A DNA stretch of 64,000 nucleotides from an uncultured Sedimenticola sp. (GTDB lineage Bacteria > Pseudomonadota > Gammaproteobacteria > Chromatiales > Chromatiaceae), in the NCBI GenBank assembly GCA_964544655.1, contig CAZJCM010000003.1, forward strand, positions 9,317 through 73,316, in the 5' to 3' direction. The notes beneath the pieces were generated by a model. It did no database searches. It was given only the letters and a program-made list of their open reading frames with translations, and was not told where the DNA came from. Within the stretch, counting starts at the first letter, position 1; each line of letters begins with the position of its first letter. Below are positions 16,744-58,586 of this stretch, piece after piece. The position numbers were made by a program, and so were the translations under genes.

Positions 16744-17861
16744 GGGTTTTCTCCTTCAGTCAGCAGTTCAGACAGAGCCTCACAGACCCGCTCCAGATCA
16801 CCATCGGTCATGGCCGGGAACAGGGGCAGGGTGAGAGTCTGTTCGCCGATGCGCTCCGCATGGGGAAAATCCCCGGGCCCATAACCGTAGCTCCGGTAGA
16901 GCGAGAACAGGTGCATGGCCGGATAGTGAATGCCCACTCCGACCCCTTTTTTCGCCAACCGTTCCACGAACGTCCGGCGGTCGCAGCCCAGGGCAGCGAA
17001 ATCGATACAGACACAGAACATATGCCAGCTGTGGCCGGGCACATCCTCGGGCAGCAGCAGCGCCGGATGGCGCGGCAGCCGCGCCAGGTAATGCAGAGCC
17101 AGCTCCCGCCGGCGCCGGTTGAAACCATCCAGCCGGCCCAGCTGGACCAGGCCGATGGCGGCGTTCACATCGGGCAGGTTCATCTTGCCGCCCCACTCCG
17201 GCACATCCATGGCGCCGTCCGCGGCGCGCTCGATGCCGTGAAAGCGGATACGTTCCAGGCGCCGCAGCAGCCGCCGGTCGCTGCAGGCCACCGCCCCGCC
17301 TTCGATAGTGGTCATGTTCTTGTTGGGATGAAAACTGAAGCAGACCGGATTACCGGCGGCTCCCACCCGGTGACCGCCCTCCGAACTGCCGATGGCCTGG
17401 GCCGCATCCTCGATCAACAGCAGCCGGCGCTGCGCCGCCAGTGCCCGCAGCGGCGCCATCTCCGCCGGCCGACCGGCAAAATGGACCGGCATGATGGCGC
17501 GGGTCCTGGGGGTGAGTGCGGCCGTCACCCCATCGATGGAGAGATTGCGGCTCACCGGGTCCACATCCACAAACACCGGCTCCGCCCCCACCCGCACCAC
17601 CACATTGGCGCTGGCGGTGAAACTCATGGCCGGGACGACCACCTGATCGCCGGGGCCCACGCCGGCGGCGGTGAGGGCGGCCTCCAGGGCGCTGGTGCCC
17701 GAGTTGAACAGGCGCACCGAGACGCCACCGCCGATATAATCGGCCAGCGCCTGCTCCAGGGCAGCCACCTTGGGGCCGGTGGCGAGCCAGCCGGAGGCCA
17801 GCACCTCGGCCGCCGCCTGCTGCTCCTGATCACCAATGGAAGGACAGGTAAAAGGCAGCAT
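16740..17861 (-). CDS. arnB: UDP-4-amino-4-deoxy-L-arabinose--oxoglutarate aminotransferase (DegT/DnrJ/EryC1 family)
   Basis: 'PFTCPSIGDQEQQAA', 'FNSGTSALEAAL', 'SFHPNKNMTTIEGG' (PLP lysine region). ATG at 17861 is preceded by GGAG; the track start at 17867 is a TTG. Confidence 0.88.
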   Translation of the reverse strand: MLPFTCPSIGDQEQQAAAEVLASGWLATGPKVAALEQALADYIGGGVSVRLFNSGTSALEAALTAAGVGPGDQVVVPAMSFTASANVVVRVGAEPVFVDVDPVSRNLSIDGVTAALTPRTRAIMPVHFAGRPAEMAPLRALAAQRRLLLIEDAAQAIGSSEGGHRVGAAGNPVCFSFHPNKNMTTIEGGAVACSDRRLLRRLERIRFHGIERAADGAMDVPEWGGKMNLPDVNAAIGLVQLGRLDGFNRRRRELALHYLARLPRHPALLLPEDVPGHSWHMFCVCIDFAALGCDRRTFVERLAKKGVGVGIHYPAMHLFSLYRSYGYGPGDFPHAERIGEQTLTLPLFPAMTDGDLERVCEALSELLTEGENP

Positions 17862-17863
17862 GA

Positions 17864-18235
17864 TCAACTCCGCGCAAGAATGAAGACACCCAGGATGATG
17901 ATACCGATGCCACCCAGGCGGGCCAGGGTGAGGGCCTCACCGAACAGGGCCCAGGCGGCGAAGGCATTGACCACGTAACCGATGGAGAGCATCGGATAGG
18001 CGATGCTCACATCCACCCTGGACAGGGCCAGGATCCACACCACCACGCTGATGCCGTAACAAAACAGCCCCAGCCAGAGCCAGGGCTCGGCCAGCAGCCG
18101 CTGGGCCACACCGATGGAGCCAGACAGGGCCAGGCCGATCTCGCCCATATCGCGCACACTCGCCTTCAGCGCCAGCTGGGCCACTGCGTTCAACAGCACC
18201 CCGGTCAGAATCAGGGCAAAGCTCGACAGGTTCAT
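17864..18235 (-). CDS. arnE: ArnE/ArnF-like small (SMR/EamA-type) undecaprenyl-phosphate-L-Ara4N flippase subunit
   Basis: 123 aa with four hydrophobic helices, located between arnT and arnB. ATGA overlap with arnT. Only one such gene is present. Confidence 0.7.
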   Translation of the reverse strand: MNLSSFALILTGVLLNAVAQLALKASVRDMGEIGLALSGSIGVAQRLLAEPWLWLGLFCYGISVVVWILALSRVDVSIAYPMLSIGYVVNAFAAWALFGEALTLARLGGIGIIILGVFILARS

Positions 18236-19875
18236 GGTTTCACCACCGCTATTTTGTTCAAGTCGCGATATATTACCCGCATTGGCAGGCCACGGTTACG
18301 AAAGCCGGGGAAATCCCCCGCCCTGAACACGGCAACCGCCTGTCTCTCCCCCTGCCAGCGCCGGCTGAAACTTTCCCAATCGGGGATCCATTTGGCCGGC
18401 TCCTGATCGATCCCCATCTGCAGCTCGCTCGGCGTCAGCGCCAGCCATACCGGACGCCCCAGATAAAACGGCAGATCGCGGGAGAAATTGGCCACGCTGT
18501 AGACCGGCGCTCCTGCATCGGTCCAGGGCCGGATCGCCTCCACCAGCGCCCGGCTGGAACGATGCACACCCAGGGGCTGAAAGCCACGCAGCAGGATCTG
18601 GCTGGCGAGCAGAAAGCCGATCGCCATGACCACCACCGCCCGGTCACCACGCCAGCGTAAGCGATAGAGGAGCAGGGCGCTGATGCTCAGCACACCTCCT
18701 GCCGCCAGCACCCAAGGACGAAAAGCTGCCAGCTGCGAAGGCGGATAACGCCCTGCCAGCAGCGACTCCAGGCCGATGCCAATCCCGAGCAGCAGCAAGC
18801 CAAGCAGCGCCAGCAGCCCCCCATCCAGCCCCACCAGGGGTCGGCGGGATAGTTGCCGCCCCATGATCAGGGCCAGGGCGGGAAACATGGGCAGGATATA
18901 GCCGGCCAGCATGGAGTGTCCGGCGGAGAAGAACAGCAGGATGAACAGGGCGTAGACCCAGAGGAAACGCAGTGGATCGAACCCCCCTGCCCGCGCTGGC
19001 AACCAGTCGAAACCGGGACGAAGCAGCGCCCGCAATCCACTGGGGATCCAGGGGATCAGTCCCAGCAGCAGTATGGGGAGAAGGTACCAGACCGCCTGGT
19101 CCCGCTGGTGCACGGTGGAGGTGTAACGGGCGAAATGCTCATGAATGAAAAAGAATTCAGGAAATTCCGGATTCGCCACACTGACGGCGACGAACCAGGG
19201 GGCGGTCACCAACAGGTAGAGCAACAGCCCCTTGCCGATATGCAGATGGCGCCACAGGGCCCAATCCCGCTGCCATAGGGAGTAGATCAGGATGGCACCA
19301 CCGGGCAGCACCAGGCCGATCAATCCTTTACTCAGGGTGGCCAGTCCCAAGGCAGCCCAGCCGAACAGCATCCAGTTGCGCACATGACGCGGATCGTCCC
19401 GCCGGGACTGGGCGATCAGCAAGGCACCCACGCCGAAGGCAAGAAACACCCCCACCATCATATCCAGGGTGATGATGTGCCCCAGCGCTGCATAGAGGAA
19501 GCTGCTGATCAGCAGCAAAAAGGCGTAAAAACCGGCCCGTTGGCCCCACAAGCGCCCGGCCACGAACATCGCCCATAATGCGCCGAGAAACGACACCAGG
19601 GCCAGGGGAAGGCGCGCACTGGCGACGCTGACGCCAAACAGTTCATAGCTGATCGCGGTGAGCCAGTACTGCAGTGCCGGCTTTTCGAAATACTTGATGT
19701 CGTTGAGCCGCGGGGTCAACCAGTCGCCCGAGGCCACCATCTCCCGCGGGATTTCGGCATAGCGCCCCTCGTCCGGCCCCATCAGATCCCGCTGGCCAAG
19801 CAGCCCGAACCAGATCAGGGCGGCCAGGGCCACCACCGTCCAGCGCACGCCAGGGCTTGGGGTCGAGTCTGTCAT
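18232..19875 (-). CDS. arnT: 4-amino-4-deoxy-L-arabinose lipid A transferase (GT39/GT83-like)
   Basis: Polytopic membrane protein. 'DEGRYAEIPREMVASGDWLTPRLNDIKYFEKPALQYW' is the typical ArnT/PMT N-terminal loop. First gene of the operon. Confidence 0.88.
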   Translation of the reverse strand: MTDSTPSPGVRWTVVALAALIWFGLLGQRDLMGPDEGRYAEIPREMVASGDWLTPRLNDIKYFEKPALQYWLTAISYELFGVSVASARLPLALVSFLGALWAMFVAGRLWGQRAGFYAFLLLISSFLYAALGHIITLDMMVGVFLAFGVGALLIAQSRRDDPRHVRNWMLFGWAALGLATLSKGLIGLVLPGGAILIYSLWQRDWALWRHLHIGKGLLLYLLVTAPWFVAVSVANPEFPEFFFIHEHFARYTSTVHQRDQAVWYLLPILLLGLIPWIPSGLRALLRPGFDWLPARAGGFDPLRFLWVYALFILLFFSAGHSMLAGYILPMFPALALIMGRQLSRRPLVGLDGGLLALLGLLLLGIGIGLESLLAGRYPPSQLAAFRPWVLAAGGVLSISALLLYRLRWRGDRAVVVMAIGFLLASQILLRGFQPLGVHRSSRALVEAIRPWTDAGAPVYSVANFSRDLPFYLGRPVWLALTPSELQMGIDQEPAKWIPDWESFSRRWQGERQAVAVFRAGDFPGFRNRGLPMRVIYRDLNKIAVVKP

Positions 19876-21496: not shown

Positions 21497-22141
21497 ATGG
21501 ATACACGCAACTACACCCCGGCCGATCAGTTGCTGATCGGCATCGATCAGTTCCTGCGCACCCTCTTTGGCCAGCCGCAGGTCACCGGGCGCCCCAACCC
21601 GGCCGACAGACTACCGGAGGCCGAGCTGACTACGGAGCAGAAACGGCATACCGCCAGGTTGATGCGTATCAACCACACTGGTGAAGTGTGTGCCCAGGCC
21701 CTGTACCAGGGGCAGGCGCTGACCGCAAAATTGCCCGAGGTACGTCACAGCATGGAACGTTCCGCTCAGGAGGAGAACGACCACCTGGCATGGTGCGATC
21801 AAAGACTGCGGGAGCTGGACGACCGCAAGAGCCTGCTCAATCCACTCTGGTATGGCGGCGCCTTCGCCATCGGTGCCGGCGCCGGTCTGGCCGGCGACAA
21901 GTGGAGCCTGGGCTTCGTCGCCGAAACCGAGTATCAGGTGTGCGCTCACCTGGAGAGCCATCTGCAGCAGATTCCTGCGGATGACCGGAAAAGCCGCGCC
22001 ATCCTGGAGCAGATGAAAGAGGATGAGATGCGCCATGCCACGACAGCCCTGGAGGGCGGCGGCGCCAAGCTGCCGAAGCCGATCAGGCTGGCGATGAAAC
22101 TCACCTCGAAGCTGATGACCAGGAGCGTCTATTGGCTATAA
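21497..22141 (+). CDS. coq7: Demethoxyubiquinone hydroxylase (di-iron carboxylate Coq7 family)
   Basis: '[18 protein letters not shown]', 'EENDHLAW', '[11 protein letters not shown]', 'EDEMRHA' (paired E...ExxH motifs). Start at 'MDTRNY'. Confidence 0.88.
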
Positions 22142-22275
22142 GCTGTCCTGATTACGTCCATGGTTCAGCAAAGGTTGAAGTAACTATCCTGCTGCCATGA
22201 AAATTCAGCGACGATCTCGATTGCAGCTGAATAGTTACGATTGAATTAACCGCATAAACCCGGCGTTGCCGCCAG

Positions 22276-23604
22276 TCACAGGTGCCGCAGGTTGTCCTTG
22301 GCGGTGCGGATCAACTGCACGATGGGAATGCTGGACGGACAGGCAAAGGTACAGGCACCACACTCCACGCAGTCCATCACCCGGTATAGCTCCTTCATCT
22401 CCTCGAACAACCGCGCCTTGCCCAACCGCGCCAGGCGTGAGGGATTGAGAAAGTAGGGGCAGGCCTCCAGGCAACGGCCGCAACGGATGCAGGGATATTC
22501 TTTCGGCCGCGCCGTCTCCTTCTCGGTAAAGGCGAGGATGCCGGAGGTCCCCTTCAGCACCGGCACATCCAGGCTGGCGATGGGGGCGCCCATCATTGGA
22601 CCACCCATGATCACCTCCCGGGTCTCTTCCTTCAGACCACCGCAGAAACGCAGCACATCCCGTACCGGCGTGCCGAGCGGCACGATCAGGTTGGCCGGAT
22701 AGGCGGCACCGGGGCCGGAGACGGTCACCACCCGCTCGATCAGGGGCATACCGCGGTCGAACCAGTCGGCGATGGCCACTAGGGTGCCCACGTTGTTCAC
22801 CGCTATACCCAGATCACGGGGCAGCTGACCTGCCGGCACCTCACGATCATAGATCGCCTTGATCAGCATCTTTTCCGCCCCCTGGGGGTACTTCACCGGC
22901 AGCGAGACCACACTCACCGGCCCATTGGGGTCGAGCCGTTTCTCCAGCTCGCGGATGGCATCCGGCTTGTTCGCCTCCACACCGATGGCGGCACGCTCCG
23001 CGCCCAGCTTGGTACGCAATATCTCGATGCCCCGCAACAGGGCATCCGGGCGCTCCATCATCAGCCGGTGGTCATTGGTCAGATAGGGCTCGCACTCGGC
23101 GCCGTTGACCAGCAGATCGTGGATCTGCTGGCCCTCGGGGATGGCATATTTCACATGGGCGGGAAAGGCGGCGCCTCCCATGCCAACGATGCCGGCCTGC
23201 TGCACCTCCCTGATGAATTCATCCATGCTGAGGGACGCCCACTCCCGTGGCGGCTGAACCGGCAGCTGCTGCGTGGCATAAGGATCGGCCTCGATCTCGA
23301 TCGCCAGCTTGAAGCTGCCATCGATATAGCGATGGGGACCGATATCCCGCACCCGACCGGTAACCGGACTGTGCAGGCAGGTCGAGACGAAGGCCCCTGC
23401 CTCGGCTATCAACTGACCGCGCACCACCTCCTCACCCACCTTCACCACCGGCTTCGCCGGCGCCCCGATGTGCTGCCCCAGGGGCATCAGATAGCGCTCG
23501 CCAAAGGGTACGCGCTGGATCGGCCGGTCCACCGTCTGCTCCTTGTGGCCAGCCGGATGGACGCCGTGGGAGAAGGAGCGTTCAAACAGATTCAGCAAGG
23601 ACAT
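22276..23604 (-). CDS. RnfC-like NAD(H)/FMN-binding iron-sulfur protein
   Basis: 'HPAGHKEQT' N-terminal RnfC-type region, 'IVGMGGAAFPAHVK', 'LVNGAECEPYLTNDHRLM', two ferredoxin motifs 'CIRCGRCLEACP' and 'CVECGACTFACP'. Starts 7 nt after the stop of the 1522-aa gene. Confidence 0.85.
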   Translation of the reverse strand: MSLLNLFERSFSHGVHPAGHKEQTVDRPIQRVPFGERYLMPLGQHIGAPAKPVVKVGEEVVRGQLIAEAGAFVSTCLHSPVTGRVRDIGPHRYIDGSFKLAIEIEADPYATQQLPVQPPREWASLSMDEFIREVQQAGIVGMGGAAFPAHVKYAIPEGQQIHDLLVNGAECEPYLTNDHRLMMERPDALLRGIEILRTKLGAERAAIGVEANKPDAIRELEKRLDPNGPVSVVSLPVKYPQGAEKMLIKAIYDREVPAGQLPRDLGIAVNNVGTLVAIADWFDRGMPLIERVVTVSGPGAAYPANLIVPLGTPVRDVLRFCGGLKEETREVIMGGPMMGAPIASLDVPVLKGTSGILAFTEKETARPKEYPCIRCGRCLEACPYFLNPSRLARLGKARLFEEMKELYRVMDCVECGACTFACPSSIPIVQLIRTAKDNLRHL

Positions 23605-23611: not shown

Positions 23612-26600
23612 CTACTCGTACCCCGCCAGATGCAGCAGGCGCTGGCGGATCTGACCGGCGATCTCGCCTTGCAGACCGGACTGCAACTCCGCCATGCGTC
23701 GTTCGTATTCCGCTTTCAGTGCGGCGATCTCGGCCGCCCGCTCGTTTGCCACGCACTGCTCGGCCTCCTGCCGCACCCGCTCGGTGAAAGGGGTGACCAG
23801 GCCCGCCAGCTCCTGCAGTGTGCGCCATATATGGCCCAGACGCCCCATCTGCATGGCAGCATCCACGCTCACTTTCAGCGCAGTCCCGGCCTCATCGGTG
23901 AGCCTGACCACAGGTGTCTTCCGTTGCCGCTCCGCTGGCGCCAGTGCGAGCCAGTCGATCACTGGCACAGCCGGCGGATCGTCTTCCTCCAGGCGGGAAA
24001 AATGGTCGGCGAAACGCTGCTCTGAAAGCATCCAGTCCAGCGGCGTGAACGGCGCCCCATCGTCACCCGGTGCCCACGCCTCCCGCTCATGCGGGTTGCC
24101 GGCAAGGCTGATCCGGCTACCGAAGACTCCCTCCTCTTCGGGGTTATAGCGCAGCAGGGGAAAGGCGCGGCTGAGCAGCGCCAGCCGGGACTGCCGCAGG
24201 GTCTGATCGGCGGCGAAGCCATGGCGCAGGGGACTCGGCGCATGCAGCCGGATCAAGGCGGGCCCGGAAAAGCCGAGGGCCTCCTTCAGGCACTGGCGAT
24301 AATGGTCCGGCTCAGCGATGGCACACTGGGCGACATAGGCATCGCGCTGGGCCAGGGCCATGAGGAGCAGGTCGGTACGGGGATCATGGCTGTCGGAGAC
24401 TGAATCGGACGTCGGCCCGGCCCCGGCCAGCCCGAGATCCAGGCTGCTGAGCAGCAATACTTTGAGCGGCAGGCCGCTGTTGAGCAGCCAGGCGACCTGG
24501 GCCAGCCCACGGCCTCCCAGTTCCCGCTCACTGCCGACCAGGATCAGGGGCGGACAGAGGGCCCGCTCTTCATCGGTCAGCGCCTGCCAGCAGGAGGCGA
24601 CCTCGGCTGTCGCCTGTTTGTCATCCAGTGCCGCCCTGGCGCGGCGTGCCAGGTTCAGGGTCGCCATCATCTCAGCCAGCTGTCCCTGCAGCAGGCCGAC
24701 CGCCATCTGCGCCCCATCACCGGTCATGTCGAGGGTGACCGGCGCGTGAAACGGGTTGTTCGGAAACACCCCGGCCCAGGCGGCGACGCTGCCTGGCACC
24801 AGCGCCAGCCCGAAGCGGGCGCGACCCAGGCCGTAATCACCCTTGGAAAGCTGCCAATGCGCCTGACGCAGGCCACTGGCCAATTCGATCAGCCCACCCA
24901 GCCGGTCGGCGTCGATACTGCTTTCCCGGCCACTGGAGCCCCTGGTCAGGGTGGAGAGATCGATCTGCCGGCCGCCCGCCGCCCCCAGATTGTTCAACAG
25001 CGTATCGAGGTCGTCCGTAGGCAAGGCATCGGTGAGGGTGTCCCGGATCCGCGTTTCAATCTCCCCCAGCAGGGCCGCCAACTCTGTATTGAAACGGCTG
25101 AGCCGGGGCTGCTGGTGATACTCTGTAGCGGCCAAGGCCAGGCGCAGCGCGATCTTCTCGCCTGAACCCGCCTCGGAGCCATCGCCGCCAGCCACTGCCA
25201 TGGCGCAGTGCCGGGACATCAACAGGGCGGCCAGGCCGTTCATATCGCCTTCTGCACCCAGCCGCTCAATGGTGGATGAGGCCGTATCCGGCATCTGTTC
25301 CCAAATGCGCCAGCACAGGCCCGCCTGCTCCAGCAGGGCCGCTGTCTGCGGCTGCGGGGTCAGGGCCTGGGCCTCGCAGGCCGCCAGACATAGGCCACAG
25401 CCCTTGCAGGCATCCGGATCGATCACCAGGGACAACAGCTCCCCACCATCCTTCTGCAGCCTTTCACCGCCCTGAAACAGGAGATCGGTCTGGGCCAGAG
25501 GCAGCGGTCCGACCTGTTCCACCACCGCAGCGAATGCCTCCTGCACCGCCTCTCTGCGCCCCTCGGGCAGGGGGGCCTTTTCCTGCAACCAGTCCCAGGC
25601 CCGCTGCAGCAGAGCGCCTGCCGTAGCGCCGGTAATCTCACCCTTGCGCCCCAAGGCACTGATCCGGGCTGCCAGCTTGCCCCCTACCTGACGCAGGGCA
25701 TCGGCGCCGGCCAGCCGGATACCGCTATCGACCAGCGTACTGGGGGTGAGCGCGGCAACGGCGATGGCGCTGTCGGGACAGGCGGTCCAGCAATCACCGC
25801 ACGCGGTGCAGAGTTCCGGGTTGAATTCGGGCAGGATCCGGCGCCAAGGCCCCATACTGCGGAACGTGCTGCTCAGCGGCGGTACCGCCGCCACCGTCAT
25901 GAAGGGATCCGCCGTTAGATCCTCCTGCTCGCCTTCGCGATAGAGGATTCCGACCTGATCCCAGAACCGGGGCAGACTGAACAGGGTCTCATCGCTCCCC
26001 CCCAATTGGCGCACCACAGCCGGGACCTGGTCCCGCCACTGCGCCTCTTCCGCCACTACTGACGCAGCCAGGGAAAAGGGCTCAAGCCGCGTCATTCCGG
26101 CGTCGAGGGCCGCCGTCAGGGCATCCCGCCCCGCAGCGGAGAGGCCGGCCAAGCCGCTTTCCCAGGCCGACTGGATACGCCGGCTCGACTCCCCGATCAG
26201 CCCCAGTGCCTGCATTGCGGCCATCGCTCCGCCAAGGCGGTATGCATCCTGCCTCTCGGCCCTGCCGGGGCCGGATTCCCCCGGGCCGTCCTGCTCCCAT
26301 CTCCCGGCCGGGAGACGGAACAGGCGCAATTCCATACGCTCGATGAGGGAGCGGGCCGTCGCATCCTGCCCCAGCACAGACTCCGCAGGATCCTCCAGGC
26401 CGCAGACCAGCAGGCCCGCGCCTTGGCGCAGCCGCGCCAGAAGCGCCGGGTGCAGCGGTTCATCGGCCGTGATCAGGGCGAAATCGAGACTCTTCTCTCC
26501 CTCTGCCGGCAGTGGCGCACCCTCAGCGCCATGAATGAGACGGTCGCAGCGCCAGCCATTCCACTCGTCCCAGGCGGAGTCGGGCAGACTGCGCAGCCAT

Positions 26601-28180
26601 CCACCGGCCAGCCGGTGCAGCAGTCCGGCACAATCCGGCAGGATACCCCCGGCGTGATGAACCGGCCGATGGAGCACTGCCAAGGCGAGGGCGCCCTTGC
26701 CGCGAAGGTCTACCCCGGCATCCCGCGCGCGTACGCCCAGCCGTTCGATCCCGGGATAGGCGCGGCGAACCTGGTCCAGCAGCACCTGCCTCTTGGGGTG
26801 CTTTTCGATATTGCCATGAAAATCGATACCAAGATAACGAACGGAGGGCGCCCCGCCATCCAGGTCGCGACAACAGGTGATCAGGTCACCACTGTCCAGC
26901 GCCAGGCCGCCCAGGCCATAGAGCACCGAGAAGGGTCGTGGCAGTTGCTGCTGATCCAGGGCCGGCACCGCGGGGTAGGGCGGGGCACCACCGTGACGCC
27001 GATTCTCCAACGCCATCGCCAGGGTGGCACGGACCTCCCGCAGCAGCGGCGCATCACCCGCCAGGGGGGTGTCCAGACGCTCCAGCACCAGCAGCTGGCG
27101 CCTGCCCTTCAGCCGCTCCAGCAGTTGGTTATGGGGGAAAGGGCGCAGGCTGTTGATACCGACCACGCCAACCTTCATCTTGTGCTCCTGACGCAACCGG
27201 TCGGCCACTGCACGGACCTGCTCCACGGCACTGCCCTGGACCAGCAGCAGTAACCGGGCATCCTCCACCCGATGGCTGGAGAGGGCGCGGTAGCGACGCC
27301 CGGTCAATCGGGCAAACGCATCCTGGGCCTGGCGCAACAACTCCGGCAGGTGGTCGTCGAAGAACGGGCGATTGCCCGCCACGCCTTGGGCATAGGCATC
27401 CGGCGCCTGCAGACTACCCTGCTGCAACGGCCGGTCCAGGTCGTGCCAACGCGGCAACCGGCGTCTGCTGTCGCCAAACAGCAGCTGCTGGGCCGGCGTT
27501 GGGCAGGCCACCGACGCCTCCGTACCACCGATGTAGTCACGAATCAGCGCTGCATCCACCAGCCGCAATTCCTGCAGCGAGCGGGCAGTACCCTCCCCGT
27601 CCATTGCCACCACCACCGGCAGCAGGGCGGTCTCGGCCAGCCGGCGGGCAATCAGAGTGAAGTCGACCGCCTGCTGGACATTTTCGGCGAGCAGGATCAC
27701 GGCCCCTGATTCCGCGGCCATATGCAGTGCCCGATGGTCGCTGCCCCGGCTCACGCCTTGGGCCGGCAACGCCTGATTGTCGAGATGAATCACCAGCGGC
27801 AGATGACGGGAAGCCGCATTGGCCAGCAGATCCTGCACCGCCGCCAGATCCGGCCCGGCCAGAAACAGTGTGGTACGCAGTCCGGCCATGGACTGTCCCA
27901 TGGCAACGGCAAAGGCGCCCCGGGGGCCTTCCGCAGCCTGGGCTTCCGGCCTGATACCGAAACTGTTCACCGGCATGCGCTGAAGCGCCTGTTGCCAGGC
28001 CAGTTCCGCGCCGCTGGCGGAGGTAGCATTGCTCAGGGCAGCCGCATCGGCCAGGGCCGCTTCGGTAAGGGCTACCGCACTGTTGCCATCCAGCACCTGA
28101 TCGGCACCGGCTGCCGGACCCGTCCCGGCAGGAACACCGAACAGGCGCCTATAGAGACGAACTGCAATTTCATTGATCAT
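23612..28180 (-). CDS. Giant (1522 aa) pyruvate:ferredoxin oxidoreductase-like protein with apparently degenerate TPP and proximal-cluster motifs
   Basis: PFOR-like order: N-terminal 'LDGNSAVALTEAA', Rossmann-like middle, ferredoxin motifs 'CTACGDCWTACP' and 'CKGCGLCLAACE', then a domain-VI-like region ending in an Ala/Glu-rich tail. ATGA overlap with the RnfB-like gene. Confidence 0.8.
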   Translation of the reverse strand: MINEIAVRLYRRLFGVPAGTGPAAGADQVLDGNSAVALTEAALADAAALSNATSASGAELAWQQALQRMPVNSFGIRPEAQAAEGPRGAFAVAMGQSMAGLRTTLFLAGPDLAAVQDLLANAASRHLPLVIHLDNQALPAQGVSRGSDHRALHMAAESGAVILLAENVQQAVDFTLIARRLAETALLPVVVAMDGEGTARSLQELRLVDAALIRDYIGGTEASVACPTPAQQLLFGDSRRRLPRWHDLDRPLQQGSLQAPDAYAQGVAGNRPFFDDHLPELLRQAQDAFARLTGRRYRALSSHRVEDARLLLLVQGSAVEQVRAVADRLRQEHKMKVGVVGINSLRPFPHNQLLERLKGRRQLLVLERLDTPLAGDAPLLREVRATLAMALENRRHGGAPPYPAVPALDQQQLPRPFSVLYGLGGLALDSGDLITCCRDLDGGAPSVRYLGIDFHGNIEKHPKRQVLLDQVRRAYPGIERLGVRARDAGVDLRGKGALALAVLHRPVHHAGGILPDCAGLLHRLAGGWLRSLPDSAWDEWNGWRCDRLIHGAEGAPLPAEGEKSLDFALITADEPLHPALLARLRQGAGLLVCGLEDPAESVLGQDATARSLIERMELRLFRLPAGRWEQDGPGESGPGRAERQDAYRLGGAMAAMQALGLIGESSRRIQSAWESGLAGLSAAGRDALTAALDAGMTRLEPFSLAASVVAEEAQWRDQVPAVVRQLGGSDETLFSLPRFWDQVGILYREGEQEDLTADPFMTVAAVPPLSSTFRSMGPWRRILPEFNPELCTACGDCWTACPDSAIAVAALTPSTLVDSGIRLAGADALRQVGGKLAARISALGRKGEITGATAGALLQRAWDWLQEKAPLPEGRREAVQEAFAAVVEQVGPLPLAQTDLLFQGGERLQKDGGELLSLVIDPDACKGCGLCLAACEAQALTPQPQTAALLEQAGLCWRIWEQMPDTASSTIERLGAEGDMNGLAALLMSRHCAMAVAGGDGSEAGSGEKIALRLALAATEYHQQPRLSRFNTELAALLGEIETRIRDTLTDALPTDDLDTLLNNLGAAGGRQIDLSTLTRGSSGRESSIDADRLGGLIELASGLRQAHWQLSKGDYGLGRARFGLALVPGSVAAWAGVFPNNPFHAPVTLDMTGDGAQMAVGLLQGQLAEMMATLNLARRARAALDDKQATAEVASCWQALTDEERALCPPLILVGSERELGGRGLAQVAWLLNSGLPLKVLLLSSLDLGLAGAGPTSDSVSDSHDPRTDLLLMALAQRDAYVAQCAIAEPDHYRQCLKEALGFSGPALIRLHAPSPLRHGFAADQTLRQSRLALLSRAFPLLRYNPEEEGVFGSRISLAGNPHEREAWAPGDDGAPFTPLDWMLSEQRFADHFSRLEEDDPPAVPVIDWLALAPAERQRKTPVVRLTDEAGTALKVSVDAAMQMGRLGHIWRTLQELAGLVTPFTERVRQEAEQCVANERAAEIAALKAEYERRMAELQSGLQGEIAGQIRQRLLHLAGYE

Positions 28181-29037
28181 TGAGATGGTTCCCCAGTGGC
28201 GACACTGAACTGATCACCCTCCAGCCAGCGGATGGCGCCGGTAGGACAGCGGCGGGTGGCGGCTTCACTCACCACGAGGCCGGCCCCGTAATCGATACGG
28301 GGCAGATTGTCCCGCATTTCAATCAGCCCGGGCGTGGCGTCAGCGGCGCAACGCCCGCAGGCATCGCAAGCCACCGTGCAGAGGGCCACCGCCGCCTCTC
28401 CGTCCAGCGGGGTATTGCATTGCACGAACAGCTTCTGGCTGATGGGCACCACTTCGAACAGATCCTTGGGACAGGCCTCGACACAGTCGTTGCAGGCGGT
28501 GCAGTTCTCCGTGTCGACTTGAGGCAGCCCGTTGGCGTTCATCTGAATCACGTCGAAGGTGCAGGCAATGGCACAGTCACCCAGGCCCAGGCAACCCCAG
28601 GAGCAGCCCTTGCCGCCCCCCGAGACCACCGCCGCCGCCCGGCAGCTCTCGAACCCCTGGTATTCGGCAATCTGGTACGCCTGCCCCTGGCCGCCGGCAC
28701 AATGCAGCCGCGCCACCCGCTTCACCTGCTCGCCGGCGTCGACGCCGAGGAAATCGGCAATTGCCTGGATGGTATCCGCATCGGCCACGGTGCAGCCGCT
28801 GGGCTGCACCTCGCCCTTCACCAGGGCCTCGGCAAAAGGCATACAGCCGGGCTCGCCGCAGGCACCACAGTTGGTTCCCGGCAACAGCTCCTCGGTCCGC
28901 TCCAGGCGCGGGTCCTCCTCCACCTTCAGCAGCTTGTAGGCCACCGCCAGGATGATGCCGAAGAACAGCCCCAGCCCGGTCATTACCGCGGGGGCGGTGA
29001 AAAATGAACCCAGATCAGGCAATGTGATAAACCCCAC
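28177..29037 (-). CDS. RnfB-like membrane-anchored polyferredoxin
   Basis: N-terminal TM helix 'VMTGLGLFFGIILAVAYKLL'. RnfB-type 'GTNCGACGEPGCMPFAEAL...GC' cluster motif, then 'CSWGCLGLGDCAIAC', 'CTACNDCVEACP', 'CDACGRCAADA'. GTG start at 29037. Confidence 0.82.
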   Translation of the reverse strand: MGFITLPDLGSFFTAPAVMTGLGLFFGIILAVAYKLLKVEEDPRLERTEELLPGTNCGACGEPGCMPFAEALVKGEVQPSGCTVADADTIQAIADFLGVDAGEQVKRVARLHCAGGQGQAYQIAEYQGFESCRAAAVVSGGGKGCSWGCLGLGDCAIACTFDVIQMNANGLPQVDTENCTACNDCVEACPKDLFEVVPISQKLFVQCNTPLDGEAAVALCTVACDACGRCAADATPGLIEMRDNLPRIDYGAGLVVSEAATRRCPTGAIRWLEGDQFSVATGEPSQ

Positions 29038-29060: not shown

Positions 29061-31562
29061 TTAATTAAAAGCCGCCGCCCGTTCCAGCAACTCATCGATA
29101 CCATCCTCATTCGGGTTGAGTGGCTTGCCCGGATGGATACATTTCGACGGGCAGATCTCCGCCGCCTCCACCAGCTGAAGATAGGTGCCGGCACTGGCAT
29201 CGGCGATGATGGCCTGGTTGTTCTCGTTGTAGACGAACATGATCGGGTTGATCGCCAGACAGTCGTTGCAGCTGGTGCAGAGGGGGCTGTCGATCCACGG
29301 CTCATCGAAGCCGACGGCATCCTCATCCTCTTCCTCCACCTCTTCAGGCTCCTGCGCCGCCTCTCCTCCGCCCTCTGCCGCCGTCCGTTCCGCAGCAGGC
29401 GCGGCAGGAGCCGATATCGGCGCCCGTGGGGCGCCGGTGCTGAAGTCCATGCCCATCAACACCTCGGTAAGCCGCCCCATCACCTCTCCAGCGGCCTCCG
29501 CCCGGGCCTGGGCCAACGCTTCCTCATGTTGTGCCTCCAGCTGGGCGATGCGCGACGCCGCCTCGGCGGCAGCCTCATCCCTGACCTGGGCCACCGCCTG
29601 CTCGACATAGCGGTTGCGCACGCCCCCCATCTCCTGCAGGGTATGCCAGAAGCTGAGCCGGTCACGACAGGCATTGACCAGCGTACGGCTGACCACCAGC
29701 TGTTGCAGGGTGCCGTATTTGTCCACCCCCCAGACGAATGGCAGGTATTGGAGCGCCTCTTCCTGAGACAACGCCAGATAGTCGGCGATCGGGATCAGAT
29801 CATCGGATTCACAGACCACCGGCACCTGGGCAAAGTGATCGAACAGCCGCGGCATCAGCAGCGCATAGTCGGCAAAGGTGAAGGCCAGTTCGCTTTCCAC
29901 CGGGGCGCCGCTCTCATCCTGATAACGAAACGGATGCAGCGGCCAGTCGCGCTCAGGTTGTGGGTTGCCGGTGAAATCCATGCGCTCGGCAAATGAATCA
30001 CCGCGGGATGGATCCACCCGGAAGAAGGGGTGAACGCGCCCTTCCAGGGCCGCACCGGCGACCAACCAGGCATTGAGAGCCGTCTCGGTCCCTACGGTCT
30101 TCAGCCCGGTGTTGATCAGATGCAGGCTGGTGCGGGTGGCATCCAGCGCTTCGATATAGCCCTGCAGCAGATGTTCATGGCGCGCCGCCGAGGTCTGAGC
30201 CACGAAGGCCTGGCGATGGGCGATGCCCAGATAACCCAGCTCGGTACGAAACGCCTGAAACGGGTCCTCATCATGGCGTGCACCCGGGTTATGGTGAGCC
30301 TGGACCCGTACCATCACCTGTATCGGCCGGCCGGAATTGAGCAGGCGGGAAAAATCGGACATCCCTTCACCGGCCATCCGATCCGCCCCTTCCAGTGCAA
30401 TCACGGTAGGCACCAGGCGGATCTCGTCCTTGGAGAAGCCTTCCCAGTTGAAGCTGTCGAACCAGGGGTCGTGGATCGAGGGGTCATACAGGTCATCCCG
30501 CTCCAGATGAGCGATGCGCAGAGCGGCGAATACCTGCGCCAGCTTCTCCGCCTTGCGATCGAACAGGGCCGTTGCCTGGGCGACCGGGTTAGGATCGGTC
30601 AGGGCCTCGAAGTCGGAGTGGCCCTGCAGCCAGCTGTCATCGGCCAGGCTCCCGGAATGGATGAAGCGCACCCGCACAGGACCCTCCTGGTACGCCTGCA
30701 GGGTCGCCAGGGCCTGCTCCACCCGGCGGCGCCTGGATTCAGGCATGCGTACCGAACCATGGGAATGGTCCATGATGTCGGACAGCGCCTCCGGATCCAG
30801 CAGATCGGCCGCTGCGCCGACACTCTCCTGGAGCCGGGCCGGTTCGATAGCCTCCAACGATTTGCCTCGTTCCACCTCCAGCAGCCGGCTCAGATCGCGG
30901 ATGCCTTCATCGACCTGGGCGCGGAAGCGGGCCAGGCGGGGAGCCGAGAGGCTGCGCACCACATGGATCAGCAGCTGGATTGCCGGATAATGGCCGTAAC
31001 CCAGCAACTGTCCCGCTTCCGGCACCTGTTCCAGCAGGCGATCCAGATCGGCCCGCAGTTTGGCGCTGTTCTCCTCGTCCAGCGCCAACTGTGACAACAG
31101 CCGGTCTGCGGATTCACGCAACAGGGGTAACGCGGGAACCGGTCCCTCCACCGCCTCCAGTTCATCCTCGCCACCCAACTGGCGCCGCAGGTCCCGTTCC
31201 AACCAGGGCAGGTTATCCTTCAGAATCCTGGCCGCCTCATCAGCCGGGGCAAACTGCTCAACTGCTTCACGCAGAAAACGGGACAGCGGCCGGGCCAACC
31301 GGTCCGGTTCGATCGCTTCGGACTGCTCCGGCGCCGGCGCCAGGTAGAGCGGATACTCATAACGCAATCTGCTGCTGTCACGAAACGGGTCCATCAGCAC
31401 CGGCAGAGTGTCGCGCGCTACCGGCTCCAGCTTGTCCCGAGCTTCTGGGTTTCCCAGATGAAAATGCCGCAGAGTATGCATGATCTCTTTGGAGACATCG
31501 GCATCCTTCACTGCGGTTGGCAGGGTGGGCAAGGGTCCTTCAGTTTGGACTGTGGCGTTCAT
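29061..31562 (-). CDS. 833-aa protein: uncharacterised N-terminal half, PFOR domain-VI-like core, acidic linker and C-terminal single-cluster ferredoxin domain
   Basis: The core aligns by eye to the C-terminus of the neighbouring 1522-aa protein (see findings). C-terminus 'EPEEVEEEDEDAVGFDEPWIDSPLCTSCNDCLAINP....EICPSKCIHPG'. Confidence 0.75.
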   Translation of the reverse strand: MNATVQTEGPLPTLPTAVKDADVSKEIMHTLRHFHLGNPEARDKLEPVARDTLPVLMDPFRDSSRLRYEYPLYLAPAPEQSEAIEPDRLARPLSRFLREAVEQFAPADEAARILKDNLPWLERDLRRQLGGEDELEAVEGPVPALPLLRESADRLLSQLALDEENSAKLRADLDRLLEQVPEAGQLLGYGHYPAIQLLIHVVRSLSAPRLARFRAQVDEGIRDLSRLLEVERGKSLEAIEPARLQESVGAAADLLDPEALSDIMDHSHGSVRMPESRRRRVEQALATLQAYQEGPVRVRFIHSGSLADDSWLQGHSDFEALTDPNPVAQATALFDRKAEKLAQVFAALRIAHLERDDLYDPSIHDPWFDSFNWEGFSKDEIRLVPTVIALEGADRMAGEGMSDFSRLLNSGRPIQVMVRVQAHHNPGARHDEDPFQAFRTELGYLGIAHRQAFVAQTSAARHEHLLQGYIEALDATRTSLHLINTGLKTVGTETALNAWLVAGAALEGRVHPFFRVDPSRGDSFAERMDFTGNPQPERDWPLHPFRYQDESGAPVESELAFTFADYALLMPRLFDHFAQVPVVCESDDLIPIADYLALSQEEALQYLPFVWGVDKYGTLQQLVVSRTLVNACRDRLSFWHTLQEMGGVRNRYVEQAVAQVRDEAAAEAASRIAQLEAQHEEALAQARAEAAGEVMGRLTEVLMGMDFSTGAPRAPISAPAAPAAERTAAEGGGEAAQEPEEVEEEDEDAVGFDEPWIDSPLCTSCNDCLAINPIMFVYNENNQAIIADASAGTYLQLVEAAEICPSKCIHPGKPLNPNEDGIDELLERAAAFN

Positions 31563-31705: not shown

Positions 31706-32659
31706 TCAAATAGCGAACTTGTCCAGCGCCGCGTTGATCGCAGCCAGCTTCTCCGCGTTGGTCTTGTCCAGACCCTGGGAGGAGATGTCGTCATAGACTA
31801 TGGCATCATCGTCACGATAGAGCAGACCCACGGGGACCTGGCTGGTATCGCGGGCGATCTCCATCGCCCCCAGCCAGTCGGACGGGTCATGCTCACGCTG
31901 ATTCTCGAACACCCGCTTCACGCTGTCGTCTACCGGAATTCCATCCTCGTGATGCAGCAGTAGAATCCGGGAGGCGTCTTCCTGCAGCGGCTTGCAAAAG
32001 GAGTCCGAGAACACCGGGCATCGCTGGATGATACGCACGAAACTGGTCCCCTTGTGCTGATGGGCCGCCTTGATGGTCTCGTAGAGCATGGGCGGGTTCC
32101 AGTCCACCACCTGGGCCACGAAGGAGATGTTGCTCACACCCAAGGTCACGGTCAGTGGATTCAGGGCCGGCAGGGGCGCCCCGTGCGGATGGGTGTTGGT
32201 GGTCATCCCCGATGGACTGGTGGGCGAGGTCTGTTTCTTGGTGAGGCCATAGATGGCGTTATCGAACACCAACACCACCATATCCATGTTGTAGCGCAAC
32301 GCATGCACCCAGGGACCGGCGCCGATGGAGAAGCAGTCGCCATCACCGGTGGCCACCCATACGTCCAGATCGGGACGCCGCGCCTTGACCCCGTTGGCCA
32401 GGGGCAGCGCACGGCCATGCAGACCATGGAAGCCGTATGTACCCATGTAGTGGGGCAACCGACTGGAACATCCAATGCCGGAGACGGCCACCGTCTGCTC
32501 CGGTGGCAGCTGGGCGTCGCGCAGCACCCGATGCACGGTGTTGAGTACGGCGAAGTCCCCGCAGCCGGGGCACCAGCGGGCCTCGCCGCCAGCATAGTCG
32601 CCGAGGGTGAAATAACGTTCGAATACGTCGAGGGACCAGTCCGCTTTCAATCCAAACAT
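31706..32659 (-). CDS. korB: 2-oxoglutarate:ferredoxin oxidoreductase beta (TPP-binding) subunit
   Basis: 'WCPGCGDFAVL', 'GIGCSSR', TPP motif 'VATGDGDCFSIG...DNAIYGLTKKQ'. ATG at 32659 with AGAGGA upstream; the track TTG at 32677 overlaps the korA stop. Substrate is assigned from rTCA context only. Confidence 0.85.
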   Translation of the reverse strand: MFGLKADWSLDVFERYFTLGDYAGGEARWCPGCGDFAVLNTVHRVLRDAQLPPEQTVAVSGIGCSSRLPHYMGTYGFHGLHGRALPLANGVKARRPDLDVWVATGDGDCFSIGAGPWVHALRYNMDMVVLVFDNAIYGLTKKQTSPTSPSGMTTNTHPHGAPLPALNPLTVTLGVSNISFVAQVVDWNPPMLYETIKAAHQHKGTSFVRIIQRCPVFSDSFCKPLQEDASRILLLHHEDGIPVDDSVKRVFENQREHDPSDWLGAMEIARDTSQVPVGLLYRDDDAIVYDDISSQGLDKTNAEKLAAINAALDKFAI

Positions 32660-32673
32660 ATATGGGTTCCTCT

Positions 32674-34584
32674 TCAATTGTTCAGGGCGTTCAGCTTTTC
32701 GCTGATCGCATCGTAGAGCATGCCCGGCTGCAGCGGGTGACCGTAGACCACCGACCAGCAGTCGACATCGACCAGGGTCTGAGCCCGCAGCACCATGGCA
32801 AGCTGAGCATAGCGCCGGTTCTCGTTGGTGATCAGGGGAGCGTCGGCGCGATCGCTGTAATTGATCTCCACCGTCATCACCTTCTTGAAGCGGCTGAAGA
32901 TCTCCGGCAATCCGGGCTCCAGGGGTGACAGGAAGTGCAGATGCAGCGAGGAGACCCGCTTGCCCTCATCACGCAGGAGGTCCACCGCTTCTTCGATGGC
33001 ACCAAGGGTGGAGCCCCAACCCACCACCAGCAGGTCACCCTCCTGATCGCCGTGCACTTTCGGCGGCTTCAGGGTCTTGTGCAGTGCTGCCAGCTTGCGG
33101 CTGCGATACTCCATGCTGCGCTGATTGGTGTCGGAATCGTAGGCCACCTTGCTGCGATGGGTGTGGGCCAGACCGGTGAGTACGTATTCACCGCCCCGCT
33201 GACCCGGGATCGGACGTTGGGAGAGCCCGGTCTCCTCGTTCCAGTCATAGGCCGGGACCTCCGGATCCCAGGGTGACTGATCCACCGGGGCGCCCAGCCA
33301 CTCCTCTTTCAGCTCAGGACGGGGGTAAGGCTGCACGCCGGTGGCGAGATTGGCATCGGTGAGCATGATCACCGGGATGCGGAACGCCTCTGCCAGCTTG
33401 CGCGCCAGAATCACATAATGGAAACACTCCTCGATGGTCGAGGGCGCGATCACCACCTTGGGCGCATCACCGGGTTCGCCATAGAGGGATGAGAGCAGAT
33501 CCGCCTGCTCCACCTTGGTCGGCAGTCCGGTCGAAGGCCCACCCCGTTGCACATCGACGATGACGATGGGTATCTCCGCCATCACCGCCAGACCGATCAT
33601 CTCGGTCTTCAGCGCCATACCGGGTCCGGAGGTGATGGTGCAGGCGGTTTTGCCGGCGAACGAGGCGCCGAGGGCAAAGCCGATGGCCGCGATCTCATCC
33701 TCAGCCTGATGCACGAACCCCCCCACACCGTCGAATACGTCAGCGATATAGTGGGAAGCGGAGGTGGCCGGTGTGATGGGGTACATGGAAACCAGTTCCA
33801 TGCCCGCCGCCATCACGCCGAGGCCGACCGCCTGGTTACCGTTGCTGATCATCATCGGCCGGCTGTGGCCAGTCTCCTGGGGCGGGATCTCCCAGTGGTA
33901 TTGCACATTTTCCGCGGCGAAGCGGTAACCGGCATCGAACAGGTCATGGTTGACCTGGATCACCTTCTCCCCCTTGCGGGCGAAGGTGCTGGCGATCTCT
34001 TTCTTCGCCAGTTCCACATCACGGCTGTAGATGTTGCAGATCATGCCGAGCACGAACATGTTCTTGCCCCGGCGCGGATTGGATACCAGCTTCAGGCACT
34101 CCTCCTCCAGCGGCAGTTCATGCACGATCAGACCGTGTTCCTGGAACTCCTTCACCGCCGCGGCGTATTGCTCACGGATCTTCTCTTGGGGATCCGTGGC
34201 CCATTTGTTCTCCAGCAACACGATGGTGCCCTTCTTGTAGGCGCCATTGGCGATACGCGAAAACAGCACCTGCTCATTGAAGGCCACCACCAGATCGGCC
34301 TCGTTACCCATATTCGTGACCCGCTTGGAGCCCAGCCTGATACGGATGCCACTGGCACCGGCCGGTGAACGGGCCGGCGGCTGGATCTCGGCCGGGATGA
34401 TCTCGACCGTCCACACCCCATTCCCCATCTTGCCGCTGACGGCACCGAAGGTCTGTCCACACTTCTGTGCGCCTTCACCCGAATCGCTGACGATCTCGAC
34501 GATATGTTCCGGGATGCGCTGAGCGGCACCCGTGCGTTCTTCCATGCGAACGACGTTGTTGCTTTGCTCTGTTTGTTGCGTCAT
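32674..34584 (-). CDS. korA: 2-oxoglutarate:ferredoxin oxidoreductase alpha subunit (fused alpha/gamma type)
   Basis: 'IVSDSGEGAQKCGQTFG' (gamma-like domain), 'GNQAVGLGVMAAGMELVSMYPITPATS', 'AEDEIAAIGFALGASFAGKTACTITSGPGMALK'. Start at 'MTQQTEQ' with AGGAAGG upstream. Confidence 0.88.
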   Translation of the reverse strand: MTQQTEQSNNVVRMEERTGAAQRIPEHIVEIVSDSGEGAQKCGQTFGAVSGKMGNGVWTVEIIPAEIQPPARSPAGASGIRIRLGSKRVTNMGNEADLVVAFNEQVLFSRIANGAYKKGTIVLLENKWATDPQEKIREQYAAAVKEFQEHGLIVHELPLEEECLKLVSNPRRGKNMFVLGMICNIYSRDVELAKKEIASTFARKGEKVIQVNHDLFDAGYRFAAENVQYHWEIPPQETGHSRPMMISNGNQAVGLGVMAAGMELVSMYPITPATSASHYIADVFDGVGGFVHQAEDEIAAIGFALGASFAGKTACTITSGPGMALKTEMIGLAVMAEIPIVIVDVQRGGPSTGLPTKVEQADLLSSLYGEPGDAPKVVIAPSTIEECFHYVILARKLAEAFRIPVIMLTDANLATGVQPYPRPELKEEWLGAPVDQSPWDPEVPAYDWNEETGLSQRPIPGQRGGEYVLTGLAHTHRSKVAYDSDTNQRSMEYRSRKLAALHKTLKPPKVHGDQEGDLLVVGWGSTLGAIEEAVDLLRDEGKRVSSLHLHFLSPLEPGLPEIFSRFKKVMTVEINYSDRADAPLITNENRRYAQLAMVLRAQTLVDVDCWSVVYGHPLQPGMLYDAISEKLNALNN

Positions 34585-34625
34585 GGGCCTTCCTGTTGAA
34601 GCTGTCCGGATCGGGATAAACGTCT

Positions 34626-34647
34626 CCGGGAGACCGGAGTCTCCCGG
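34626..34647 (-). promoter_or_regulatory. Perfect 9-bp stem-loop in the korA leader
   Basis: CCGGGAGAC-cgga-GTCTCCCGG, 42-63 nt upstream of the korA ATG. An additional GTCTCC copy (34622-34627) gives an A-A'-A arrangement. Confidence 0.55.
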
Positions 34648-34741
34648 CAAAGATCCGGGGAAATTCTGCTTGATCTACCGGTAAAAACCGGGCCAAAACC
34701 ACCCGCTGGCTTCGGCGTGGAGACAATCATTCGAGCGTCAG

Positions 34742-36131: not shown

Positions 36132-36143
36132 GCCGTCGCTTCC

Positions 36144-37766: not shown

Positions 37767-37804
37767 TTGGGTATCACTGGATGGGAAGCAGACACGATGA
37801 CACG

Positions 37805-40946: not shown

Positions 40947-41172
40947 CACAGGCTCCGGGCAGGTTTTCTCAGGCGATGTTCTGCACAGCTCCGATGCAGA
41001 GATGCCGCATGCCGGCAGAGGCCGGGGTATCCGGGCCATTCGCACGATCATGCGGCCCGGCATCGCCCCATGACTTGACCTGCCACGATGGCCGATCCGT
41101 TACGATATACGCCATGACGAAGATGATACAGATACCACAACAACACTCGAATGCAGGTTTGGAGGCCAAACC

Positions 41173-42744: not shown

Positions 42745-42756
42745 GAGCCGCGCACC

Positions 42757-44145: not shown

Positions 44146-44298
44146 CCTGACAATCAATATGGAAAGATCCCTGGATCGATCTTCCCGGAGCGCAAACACC
44201 TCTGGAGGGATTGGGCAGGGAGTACGGATGCAGACCTAAAGGAGAGCGGCCCGGCTCACCGCGGCTGCAACGGAAACACAAACCGAGGGTAAGGACCG

Positions 44299-55994: not shown

Positions 55995-56176
55995 GTTGCC
56001 TTCCTCTTCGATCTCTTCCGGCCGTCAGGCCGGAGCCGCACATCTCTGCTTGGATTGGTTGGGCCGCAAATGAACATGAATAGACGCATATGTTCTTTAA
56101 ACTGCCGAATGGCTGCCGGGAAAAATACAGGCCCAGGCATCATTCGCGACCAGAATTTCGGGTTATGATTTCCGCC

Positions 56177-58396: not shown

Positions 58397-58586
58397 GGAT
58401 ACCCGCTCCTTCCGCAATTCCGCCGCTTTCCACTCATCCACCACACAATCTTAATTCCGTAACTTTATAAAGGGTAATGGAAAATTCATTGAATTGGAAA
58501 AGGTTATGGAATCGACCGACAGCGGGTCATCCGGCAAGCCGAACAGGCACCCGGCAGCAATGCAAAAAGCATCCTGAAAGAATTAC

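Follow-up and report, generated by a model that had tools for sequence, protein, structure and literature searches.

The 64,000-nucleotide stretch of DNA from an uncultured Sedimenticola sp. analyzed here (contig CAZJCM010000003.1; hereafter the window, from whose first letter all coordinates are counted) encodes at positions 23612..28180 (-) a 1522-residue protein, PFL, that resembles the pyruvate:ferredoxin oxidoreductases (PFORs) and lies between rnfB and rnfC. From its sequence, it is strongly supported that PFL has lost PFOR catalysis and is not a working pyruvate synthase. Catalysis of the 2-oxoacid:ferredoxin oxidoreductase (OFOR) type is not credible because the Glu that activates thiamine pyrophosphate (TPP), the Mg-TPP motif and the proximal [4Fe-4S] cluster are all lost. 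Regarding what the protein does instead, gene context gives about an even chance that PFL, together with a paralogue designated X, acts as a non-catalytic Fe-S adaptor or scaffold linking Rnf to a 2-oxoglutarate:ferredoxin oxidoreductase (OGOR). A sequence-only reading of this DNA had proposed a pseudoenzyme or electron-transfer scaffold; the loss of catalysis stands, through the motif losses and the control offered by KorB described below, whereas for the wire or scaffold it is gene context that speaks.

Residues are compared below in the numbering of the D. africanus PFOR (Da), and the PFOR of M. thermoacetica (Mt) serves as a further reference. A profile of 53 family sequences was searched against PDB sequences (HMMER), and a three-sequence PFOR profile, made of the C-terminal halves of Da, Mt and E. 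coli YdbK, was compared by hhalign with the family C-terminal alignment (99.5%, E 3e-23), the Da (635-1168) and Mt halves having been rebuilt from alignments to YdbK. According to hhalign, the four Cys ligands of the proximal cluster correspond to E1003 (Da C812), S1006 (C815), S1131 (C840) and S1316 (C1071), and Da E817 is preserved as E1008. The former cluster loop GGDGSEAGSGEK (residues 998-1009; 25154..25189 (-)) has invariant E1003 and G999-D1000, S1131 is held by PGSVAAW (residues 1129-1135; 24776..24796 (-)), and S1316 lies in HAPSP (residues 1313-1317; 24230..24244 (-)), where HMMER likewise pairs Mt 'IIAYAPC' with family 'irvhaPsP'. The secondary structure predicted by AlphaFold agrees with these pairings, with a helix that begins at 'GEKIA' as it does at PFOR 'GETPY', and a strand 'FGLAL' ahead of 'PGSVAAW' that matches PFOR 'MFIANATGC'.

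The Mg-TPP motif (GDG-x(26-28)-N/T; Da D963 and T991) is replaced in the family by G-[N/S]-[D/E]...S-[E/D]-L-D-L-G-L, which no longer conforms to it. In PFL the corresponding strand CPPLILVGSERELGGRGL (residues 1209-1226; 24503..24556 (-)) is degenerate, GDG having become G-[N/S]-[D/E]: Da 'GGDGWAYDIG' pairs with 'VGSERELGGRG', the strand of GDG962-964 falling onto 'VGSERE', and Da 'DTEVYSNTGGQ' pairs with 'SSLDL-GLAGAG' in the region of residues 1240-1255 (24416..24463 (-)), where T991 and N996 have both become Leu. HMMER pairs Mt 'IWIIGGDGWAYDIG...VLDTEVYSNTGGQ' with the family consensus 'LlLvGndeeLgGrG...vls.eLdlgld'. At the GDG site the register differs by one between the two methods, D963 falling on E1218 (HMMER; D/E in 107/121) or on R1219 (hhalign); as far as these alignments go, an acidic residue may survive at the D963 position, while the motif itself is gone. 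Three independent alignments place the Da Glu that activates TPP (E64, 'QSEAG') on P86 of 'EGPRG', a loss that the sequence-only reading did not list, and the substrate Arg (Da R114) falls on Q136, this position being R in 87 of 121 relatives (72%).

Both losses that had been claimed by eye, that of the Mg-TPP motif and that of the four proximal-cluster Cys, are thus borne out across the family, the motif pairings proposed at that time being reproduced by HMMER and hhalign profile alignments to Da and Mt PFOR. The literal GDG at 999 and 1154 were considered as a shifted motif and rejected, since the former corresponds to the old cluster loop and the latter to the PFOR 'GQGPAW' loop, and neither to the Mg-TPP strand. 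Two simpler comparisons were set aside: a single-sequence phmmer search of PDB covered no more than domains I-II, the Fer4 motifs and the final 80 residues of domain VI, which is insufficient for the motifs, and global and local hhalign runs with YdbK as the sole reference gave no reliable placement of the 'GACSGCGET' segment (low confidence, residues 957-1115), for which reason the three-sequence PFOR profile was used instead and yielded a consistent alignment.

The replacements are a property of the family. No Cys is found at the first proximal-cluster position (Da C812) among 121 family members, and the residues found instead are themselves strongly conserved, a point missing from the sequence-only reading: E1003 in 121/121 homologues, S1006 in 117, S/T1131 in 104 (S 71, T 33) and S1316 in 118. 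At the Da E64 position, 118 of the 121 sequences have P (80), A (23) or G (15), and the replacement pattern of the cluster ligands persists in 265 sequences including distant representatives (E 250, S 251, S 236). Two extra Cys without PFOR counterpart, C992 and C1209 (window ~25203-25205 and 24554-24556), occur in 85-93% of close homologues. An internal control is provided by KorB, the canonical OGOR beta subunit encoded nearby (31706..32677 (-)), in which CxxC (36, 39), C70, GDG111 and C220 are intact; its 'CPGCGD', 'GIGCSS', 'ATGDGDC' and 'QRCPVF' preserve all four proximal-cluster Cys together with GDG.

In contrast to this loss, the ferredoxin domain (domain V) is retained, as had been claimed. 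Motif 1, CTACGDCWTACP (C791, C794, C797, C801; 25775..25810 (-)), and motif 2, CKGCGLCLAACE (C925, C928, C931, C935; 25373..25408 (-)), are both intact, and all eight Cys are present in 121/121 close homologues and in 250-262 of 265 sequences once distant representatives are added. The wide gap noted earlier between the two motifs (~125 residues) holds, since C801 and C925 are 124 residues apart against 46 in D. africanus PFOR, and is accounted for by a helical insertion of ~78 residues (within residues 803-924; 25409..25774 (-)). Likewise, the ~100 extra residues said to follow 'GSGEKIALRL' are found as a second helical insertion after the GSGEK loop (residues 1010-1120; 24821..25153 (-)), the spacing from E1008 to S1131 being 123 residues against 23 in D. 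africanus PFOR. Both insertions are confidently helical in the AlphaFold model, while the loops at the former cluster and TPP sites are of low confidence.

Structure prediction was run on two halves of PFL, residues 1-770 (pLDDT 78, pTM 0.81) and 740-1522 (pLDDT 81, pTM 0.78), each of which was searched by Foldseek against PDB. This check, which had been proposed with the original claim, confirmed a PFOR fold: the N half has PFOR 6CIO as its top match (E 3e-36; 2C3Y at TMq 0.70, TMq range 0.67-0.70), and the C half matches 6CIQ/6CIN (E 4e-13), then 1B0P, then PorB 9BT4_C. In addition, hhalign of the PFL family against E. coli YdbK gives 100% probability. As modelled, domains I-VI of PFOR are shown to be retained in the same order, which places PFL in the OFOR superfamily at the level of fold. 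Domains I-II (residues 28-390, the PFOR Pyr domain and domain II) are encoded at 27011..28099 (-), and the domain III/IV-like region (residues 391-760) at 25901..27010 (-), with a fold as in PFOR and no Pfam match; the fold of domain III is kept though Pfam no longer detects this domain. The C-terminal extension (residues 1350-1522; 23615..24133 (-)) carries the motifs EGVFGSR and WRTLQELAG and a terminal helix of ~55 residues, is common to PFL and X, and beyond about residue 1402 has no PFOR counterpart.

These results bear on the possibility that PFL works as a pyruvate synthase despite its divergent motifs, in line with its annotation and with what publications on the reductive tricarboxylic acid (rTCA) cycle of tubeworm symbionts assume. 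NCBI and JGI records label PFL 'pyruvate ferredoxin oxidoreductase', the supplement of PMC6315080 treats the protein as a PFOR, and the overall fold and the possible acidic residue at the D963 position could be cited in favor. However, the TPP-activating Glu and the second half of the Mg-TPP motif are gone, the four proximal-cluster ligands are missing in every family member, and the match to the NCBIfam PFOR equivalog TIGR02176, broken into three partial stretches, reaches only 141.7 bits, 770 short of the cut-off of 911, so that PFL falls outside the equivalog. A Pfam scan finds just POR_N (81-218), PFOR_II (309-390) and two 4Fe-4S (Fer4) motifs in PFL, with no PF02775 (TPP_enzyme_C), PF01558 (POR, domain III) or PF10371. 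Moreover, Endoriftia owns separate bona fide PFOR isoforms (PMC11636981). A working PFOR is hence very improbable.

Decay of the gene into a pseudogene, or an assembly artefact, is more improbable still and can hardly be entertained, as nothing beyond the motif loss favors it, whereas the ORF of 4.6 kb is intact, an identical protein is encoded on four independent contigs, hundreds of full-length orthologues exist across families and the gene is transcribed in the Escarpia symbiont (PMC6315080 supplement). More than 120 full-length homologues (about 1440-1590 residues, 41-67% identity) were retrieved by a word-indexed search, their carriers including Sedimenticola, Endothiovibrio, clam and tubeworm symbionts, Thiomargarita and Parabeggiatoa, and when 1.84 billion representatives were searched exhaustively with a profile, at least 962 clusters (50% identity) reached E<=1e-30 and 3276 reached E<=1e-3. 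In the alignment of 53 family sequences, column identity averages 53% and many positions are invariant. Taken together, the conserved ferredoxin Cys and the conserved replacement residues indicate that PFL is under purifying selection, as is characteristic of a pseudoenzyme.

The genomic context, which the sequence-only reading lacked along with paralogue X, places PFL within an rnf operon. Its start codon overlaps the stop of rnfB (28177..29037 (-)), which encodes a membrane-anchored polyferredoxin subunit with 20 Cys, by 4 nt, and its own stop lies 7 nt ahead of rnfC (22276..23604 (-)), the operon's final gene in the window; at 22141-22276, rnfC faces a convergent COQ7 gene. Upstream of rnfB follow X (29061..31562 (-)), korB and korA (32674..34650 (-)), the latter encoding the OGOR alpha subunit with domains III, I and II. 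No rnfDGEA was found in a search across the 64-kb window. On contigs with an identical protein and at the loci of relatives, a conserved order is seen, namely (flavoprotein, NuoF-like)-korA-korB-X-rnfB-PFL-[sucCD]-rnfC-D-G-E-A-(mdh), and the same order recurs in a distant metagenome contig with a 1399-residue PFL and in a Myxococcota metagenome-assembled genome (MAG).

Neighbors were scored by tblastn in 80 species-representative genomes, the denominators being evaluable loci. Immediately upstream of PFL, rnfB is present at 66/68 loci, X lies upstream of rnfB at 58/60, and korB upstream of X at 53/54. Downstream of PFL, rnfC follows directly at 50 of 71 loci, and sucCD comes first at 15/71, followed by rnfC in 10 of the 14 evaluable cases, which makes 60/71 loci with rnfC or sucCD-rnfC in total; neither was found downstream at 6/71, five of Beggiatoaceae type (such as Parabeggiatoa, Marithrix, Thiomargarita and Thioploca) and one from an unclassified gammaproteobacterial MAG. 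As for the remaining subunits, rnfDGEA is present, behind rnfC, in 46/52 related genomes.

X, of 833 residues, is a paralogue of the C-terminal half of PFL, comprising domains V'-VI' and the extension. By BLASTP, its residues 340-703 are 27% identical to PFL 1167-1516 (E 1e-25), and hhalign widens the match to X 14-705 against PFL 719-1518 (99.8%, E 2e-30). In a distant relative (locus L009:4088-8170) X is full-length (1360 residues) and aligns to PFL 85-1521. The PFOR-like part of X has lost all domain-V Cys and has no cluster Cys; an acidic linker then leads to a single-cluster ferredoxin domain at the C terminus, CxxCxxC...CP (C762, C765, C768, C804). No NCBIfam family matches X, its sole family match is the C-terminal Fer4_13, and no PDB relative was found beyond the ferredoxin tail. 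Supply of a TPP or cluster site in trans by X was considered and rejected, X being without those motifs too. On the basis of these alignments, PFL and X appear to have arisen by duplication of a PFOR subunit, with catalysis lost in both. As PFOR forms a homodimer, its conversion into a PFL:X pseudo-heterodimer is a natural hypothesis.

The adaptor reading is drawn from the invariant domain-V Cys, the position between rnfB and rnfC, the linkage to an OGOR without ferredoxin domain and the tethered ferredoxin of X. PFL would descend from a single-chain PFOR, keeping the six-domain fold and the two ferredoxin-domain [4Fe-4S] clusters, and would no longer perform TPP chemistry or pass electrons from a TPP site to the clusters. 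RnfB is the ferredoxin-side electron port of Rnf, and PFL, from its encoded position, probably sits on that side of the complex. PFL and X would then constitute an accessory Fe-S module of a specialized Rnf complex, docked on or near RnfB, and might relay low-potential electrons between Rnf and KorAB in either direction, for reductive carboxylation or for 2-oxoglutarate oxidation; a physical association of PFL/X with Rnf and KorAB is suggested by gene context. A more specific and clearly more tentative proposal is that the PFL:X dimer bridges Rnf, via RnfB, and KorAB in a hard-wired Rnf-OGOR supercomplex, in which electrons would travel via domain V of PFL and then the ferredoxin of X. If this were true, low-potential electrons energized by the ion gradient would reach a CO2-fixing OGOR without a diffusing, oxygen-labile ferredoxin pool, which would explain ferredoxin-dependent (r)TCA steps in microaerobic sulfur oxidizers.

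A narrower role is also conceivable, in which PFL serves Rnf or OGOR in a purely structural way, as scaffold or assembly factor, and its domain-V clusters serve fold stability, off any electron path. The operon position and its conservation, the large helical insertions and coiled-coil-like terminal helix, which are typical docking elements, and the retention of X despite the loss of all its domain-V Cys are consistent with such a role, which is nevertheless unlikely given that the eight Cys of PFL are invariant, that X has independently kept or gained a ferredoxin domain, and that the neighboring RnfB is an electron port.

Several observations weigh against the adaptor. The link to KorAB is not universal, as PFL of Beggiatoaceae (L007, L044, L045, L048, L077, L082, L089, L090) is found with rnfB only or alone, with no X, korAB or rnfC nearby, and rnfDGEA is not adjacent in the window or in tubeworm symbionts. 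One of these loci, L007, has a separate three-subunit porABG-type OFOR ~8 kb from PFL. A mere wire would have no obvious need of domain III, which binds coenzyme A (CoA) in PFOR, or of R114, yet the former is retained and the latter occurs in 72% of the family. Finally, the conserved E1003, S1006, S/T1131, S1316, G999-D1000 and acidic residues at 1218, 1246 and 1248 could make up a new ligand or metal site with a new activity.

This last point leads to the main rival of the adaptor reading, namely a neo-functionalized PFL whose remodelled pocket binds another metal or ligand. PFL would then be an enzyme, or a sensor of metabolites or redox state, with a regulatory effect on Rnf or OGOR, and more than a passive electron relay. 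The pocket would consist of the invariant Glu, the three Ser/Thr, the invariant GGD and nearby Asp/Glu. In favor of this reading, the replaced ligand positions are conserved like catalytic residues, the extra Cys C992 and C1209 are near-invariant, the domain III fold is largely kept, as is the R114 equivalent, and AlphaFold confidence falls exactly in these loops, as would be expected of ligand-dependent structure. On the other hand, no known cofactor-binding motif was recognized when PFL was scanned with Pfam and NCBIfam, O-donors in place of Cys can merely plug the cavity by hydrogen bonding, PFL of the window has Q at the R114 position and no ligand can be named. On balance, neo-functionalization seems rather improbable, if somewhat less so than a purely structural role.

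Compared with known systems, PFL shares with the single-chain PFORs (D. africanus 1B0P/2C42, M. thermoacetica 6CIN, E. coli YdbK, NifJ; TIGR02176) the order of domains I-VI and the fold, both domain-V CxxCxxCxxxCP motifs of the medial and distal clusters, E817 and the RF..L motif after domain VI. It differs from them by the lack of the TPP-activating Glu, of GDG...T/N and of the proximal-cluster Cys, by the ~78-residue domain-V insertion, the ~100-residue insertion after the loop and a C-terminal extension of ~120-170 residues, and by being encoded inside an rnf operon. With the two-subunit OGOR KorAB encoded upstream (Magnetococcus marinus 6N2N type) it shares the OFOR superfamily, the operon and presumably the pathway. 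KorB has TPP and a single cluster but no ferredoxin domain, and PFL is its mirror image, with a ferredoxin domain but neither TPP nor proximal cluster. Like the accessory or extended subunits of Rnf (RnfB polyferredoxin extensions; 7ZC6, 9ERI), PFL is an Fe-S-bearing module, encoded between rnfB and rnfC and predicted to be cytoplasmic. Among its PDB sequence and Foldseek matches there is no Rnf entry with a PFOR-like chain, only the RnfB chains 7zc6_B and 9eri_B, which match through Fer4 motifs; to our knowledge, no Rnf complex with a PFOR-derived subunit has been solved or described. As in pseudoenzyme paralogues that partner active enzymes, PFL has lost catalytic residues, has kept the fold under what appears to be purifying selection and is co-encoded with an active relative. 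Unlike them, it keeps a redox-cofactor domain, so that it may stay an active electron carrier instead of an inert regulator.

The surrounding window is a TCA/rTCA island that includes aconitase, monomeric isocitrate dehydrogenase, citrate synthase, two Mdh paralogues and a Succ_CoA_lig-domain protein. Upstream of korAB, at 34884-38431 (-), lie genes for a 2Fe-2S/4Fe-4S protein, an FAD_binding_2 flavoprotein (fumarate-reductase-like) and a NuoF-like NADH/FMN subunit, which together resemble a soluble module of the fumarate reductase type with a link to NADH; the genes for the flavoprotein and the NuoF-like subunit recur ahead of korAB in the Solemya pervernicosa symbiont (L004) and at locus L006, and the Fe-S gene was seen only in the window and the identical contig (L002). 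At 53265-57388 a 909-residue protein (Pfam: Succ_CoA_lig only) adjoins a divergently oriented 432-residue ORF without Pfam match, and the two may belong to an unconventional citrate-cleaving or CoA-ligase system. Two malate/lactate dehydrogenase paralogues stand back to back on opposite strands at 57455-59598, citrate synthase then being at 59849-61144, while a 1076-residue ORF without Pfam match (40969-44199 (-)) adjoins aconitase. Downstream of the rnf/PFL cluster, an arn-like operon (ArnT-, ArnB-, ArnC- and ArnA-type; L-Ara4N modification of lipid A) occupies 13752-19875 (-).

The genes have been met before under other names. In the Escarpia symbiont, Rubin-Blum et al. (2019; PMC6315080, Supplemental Note 2, expression table) described an 'rTCA cycle cluster 2' with sucD, sucC, por, rnfB, por-like, korB, korA, nuoF* and further genes, por and por-like both being transcribed, and the co-occurrence of OGOR and PFOR was argued to be expected, with PFOR carboxylating acetyl-CoA; this reading treats PFL as a working PFOR. 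In Endoriftia, where the separate bona fide PFOR isoforms were noted, Mitchell et al. (2024; PMC11636981) listed a 'PFOR-like ferredoxin' (LOY14_RS16070) that directly follows korA(3)/korB(3) and drops together with korAB(3) when sulfide is limiting, its position matching that of X. A search of full-text literature, of limited coverage, returned no report of TPP or cluster motif loss or of a PFOR-derived Rnf partner, only the labels 'por', 'por-like' and 'PFOR-like ferredoxin'.

PFL is, as its alignments and gene order indicate, part of an OFOR-derived pseudoenzyme family embedded in rnf operons, which has practical consequences for pathway annotation and provides a testable bioenergetic hypothesis. 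With respect to annotation, PFL has been counted as the pyruvate synthase of 'rTCA cluster 2' in reconstructions of tubeworm symbionts, and its sequence argues strongly against that reaction; if PFL is incapable of pyruvate synthesis, carbon flow from acetyl-CoA must therefore rely on other isoforms. In evolutionary terms, it would offer a clear example of how duplication can make a pseudoenzyme out of an OFOR, with two copies whose losses are complementary to KorAB. This PFOR-derived Fe-S module spans Sedimenticola-like bacteria, tubeworm and clam symbionts, Woeseiaceae, Beggiatoaceae and a Myxococcota MAG, and points to an undescribed coupling of Rnf to a ferredoxin-dependent carboxylase, a testable idea on how low-potential electrons may be supplied for CO2 fixation outside strict anaerobes.

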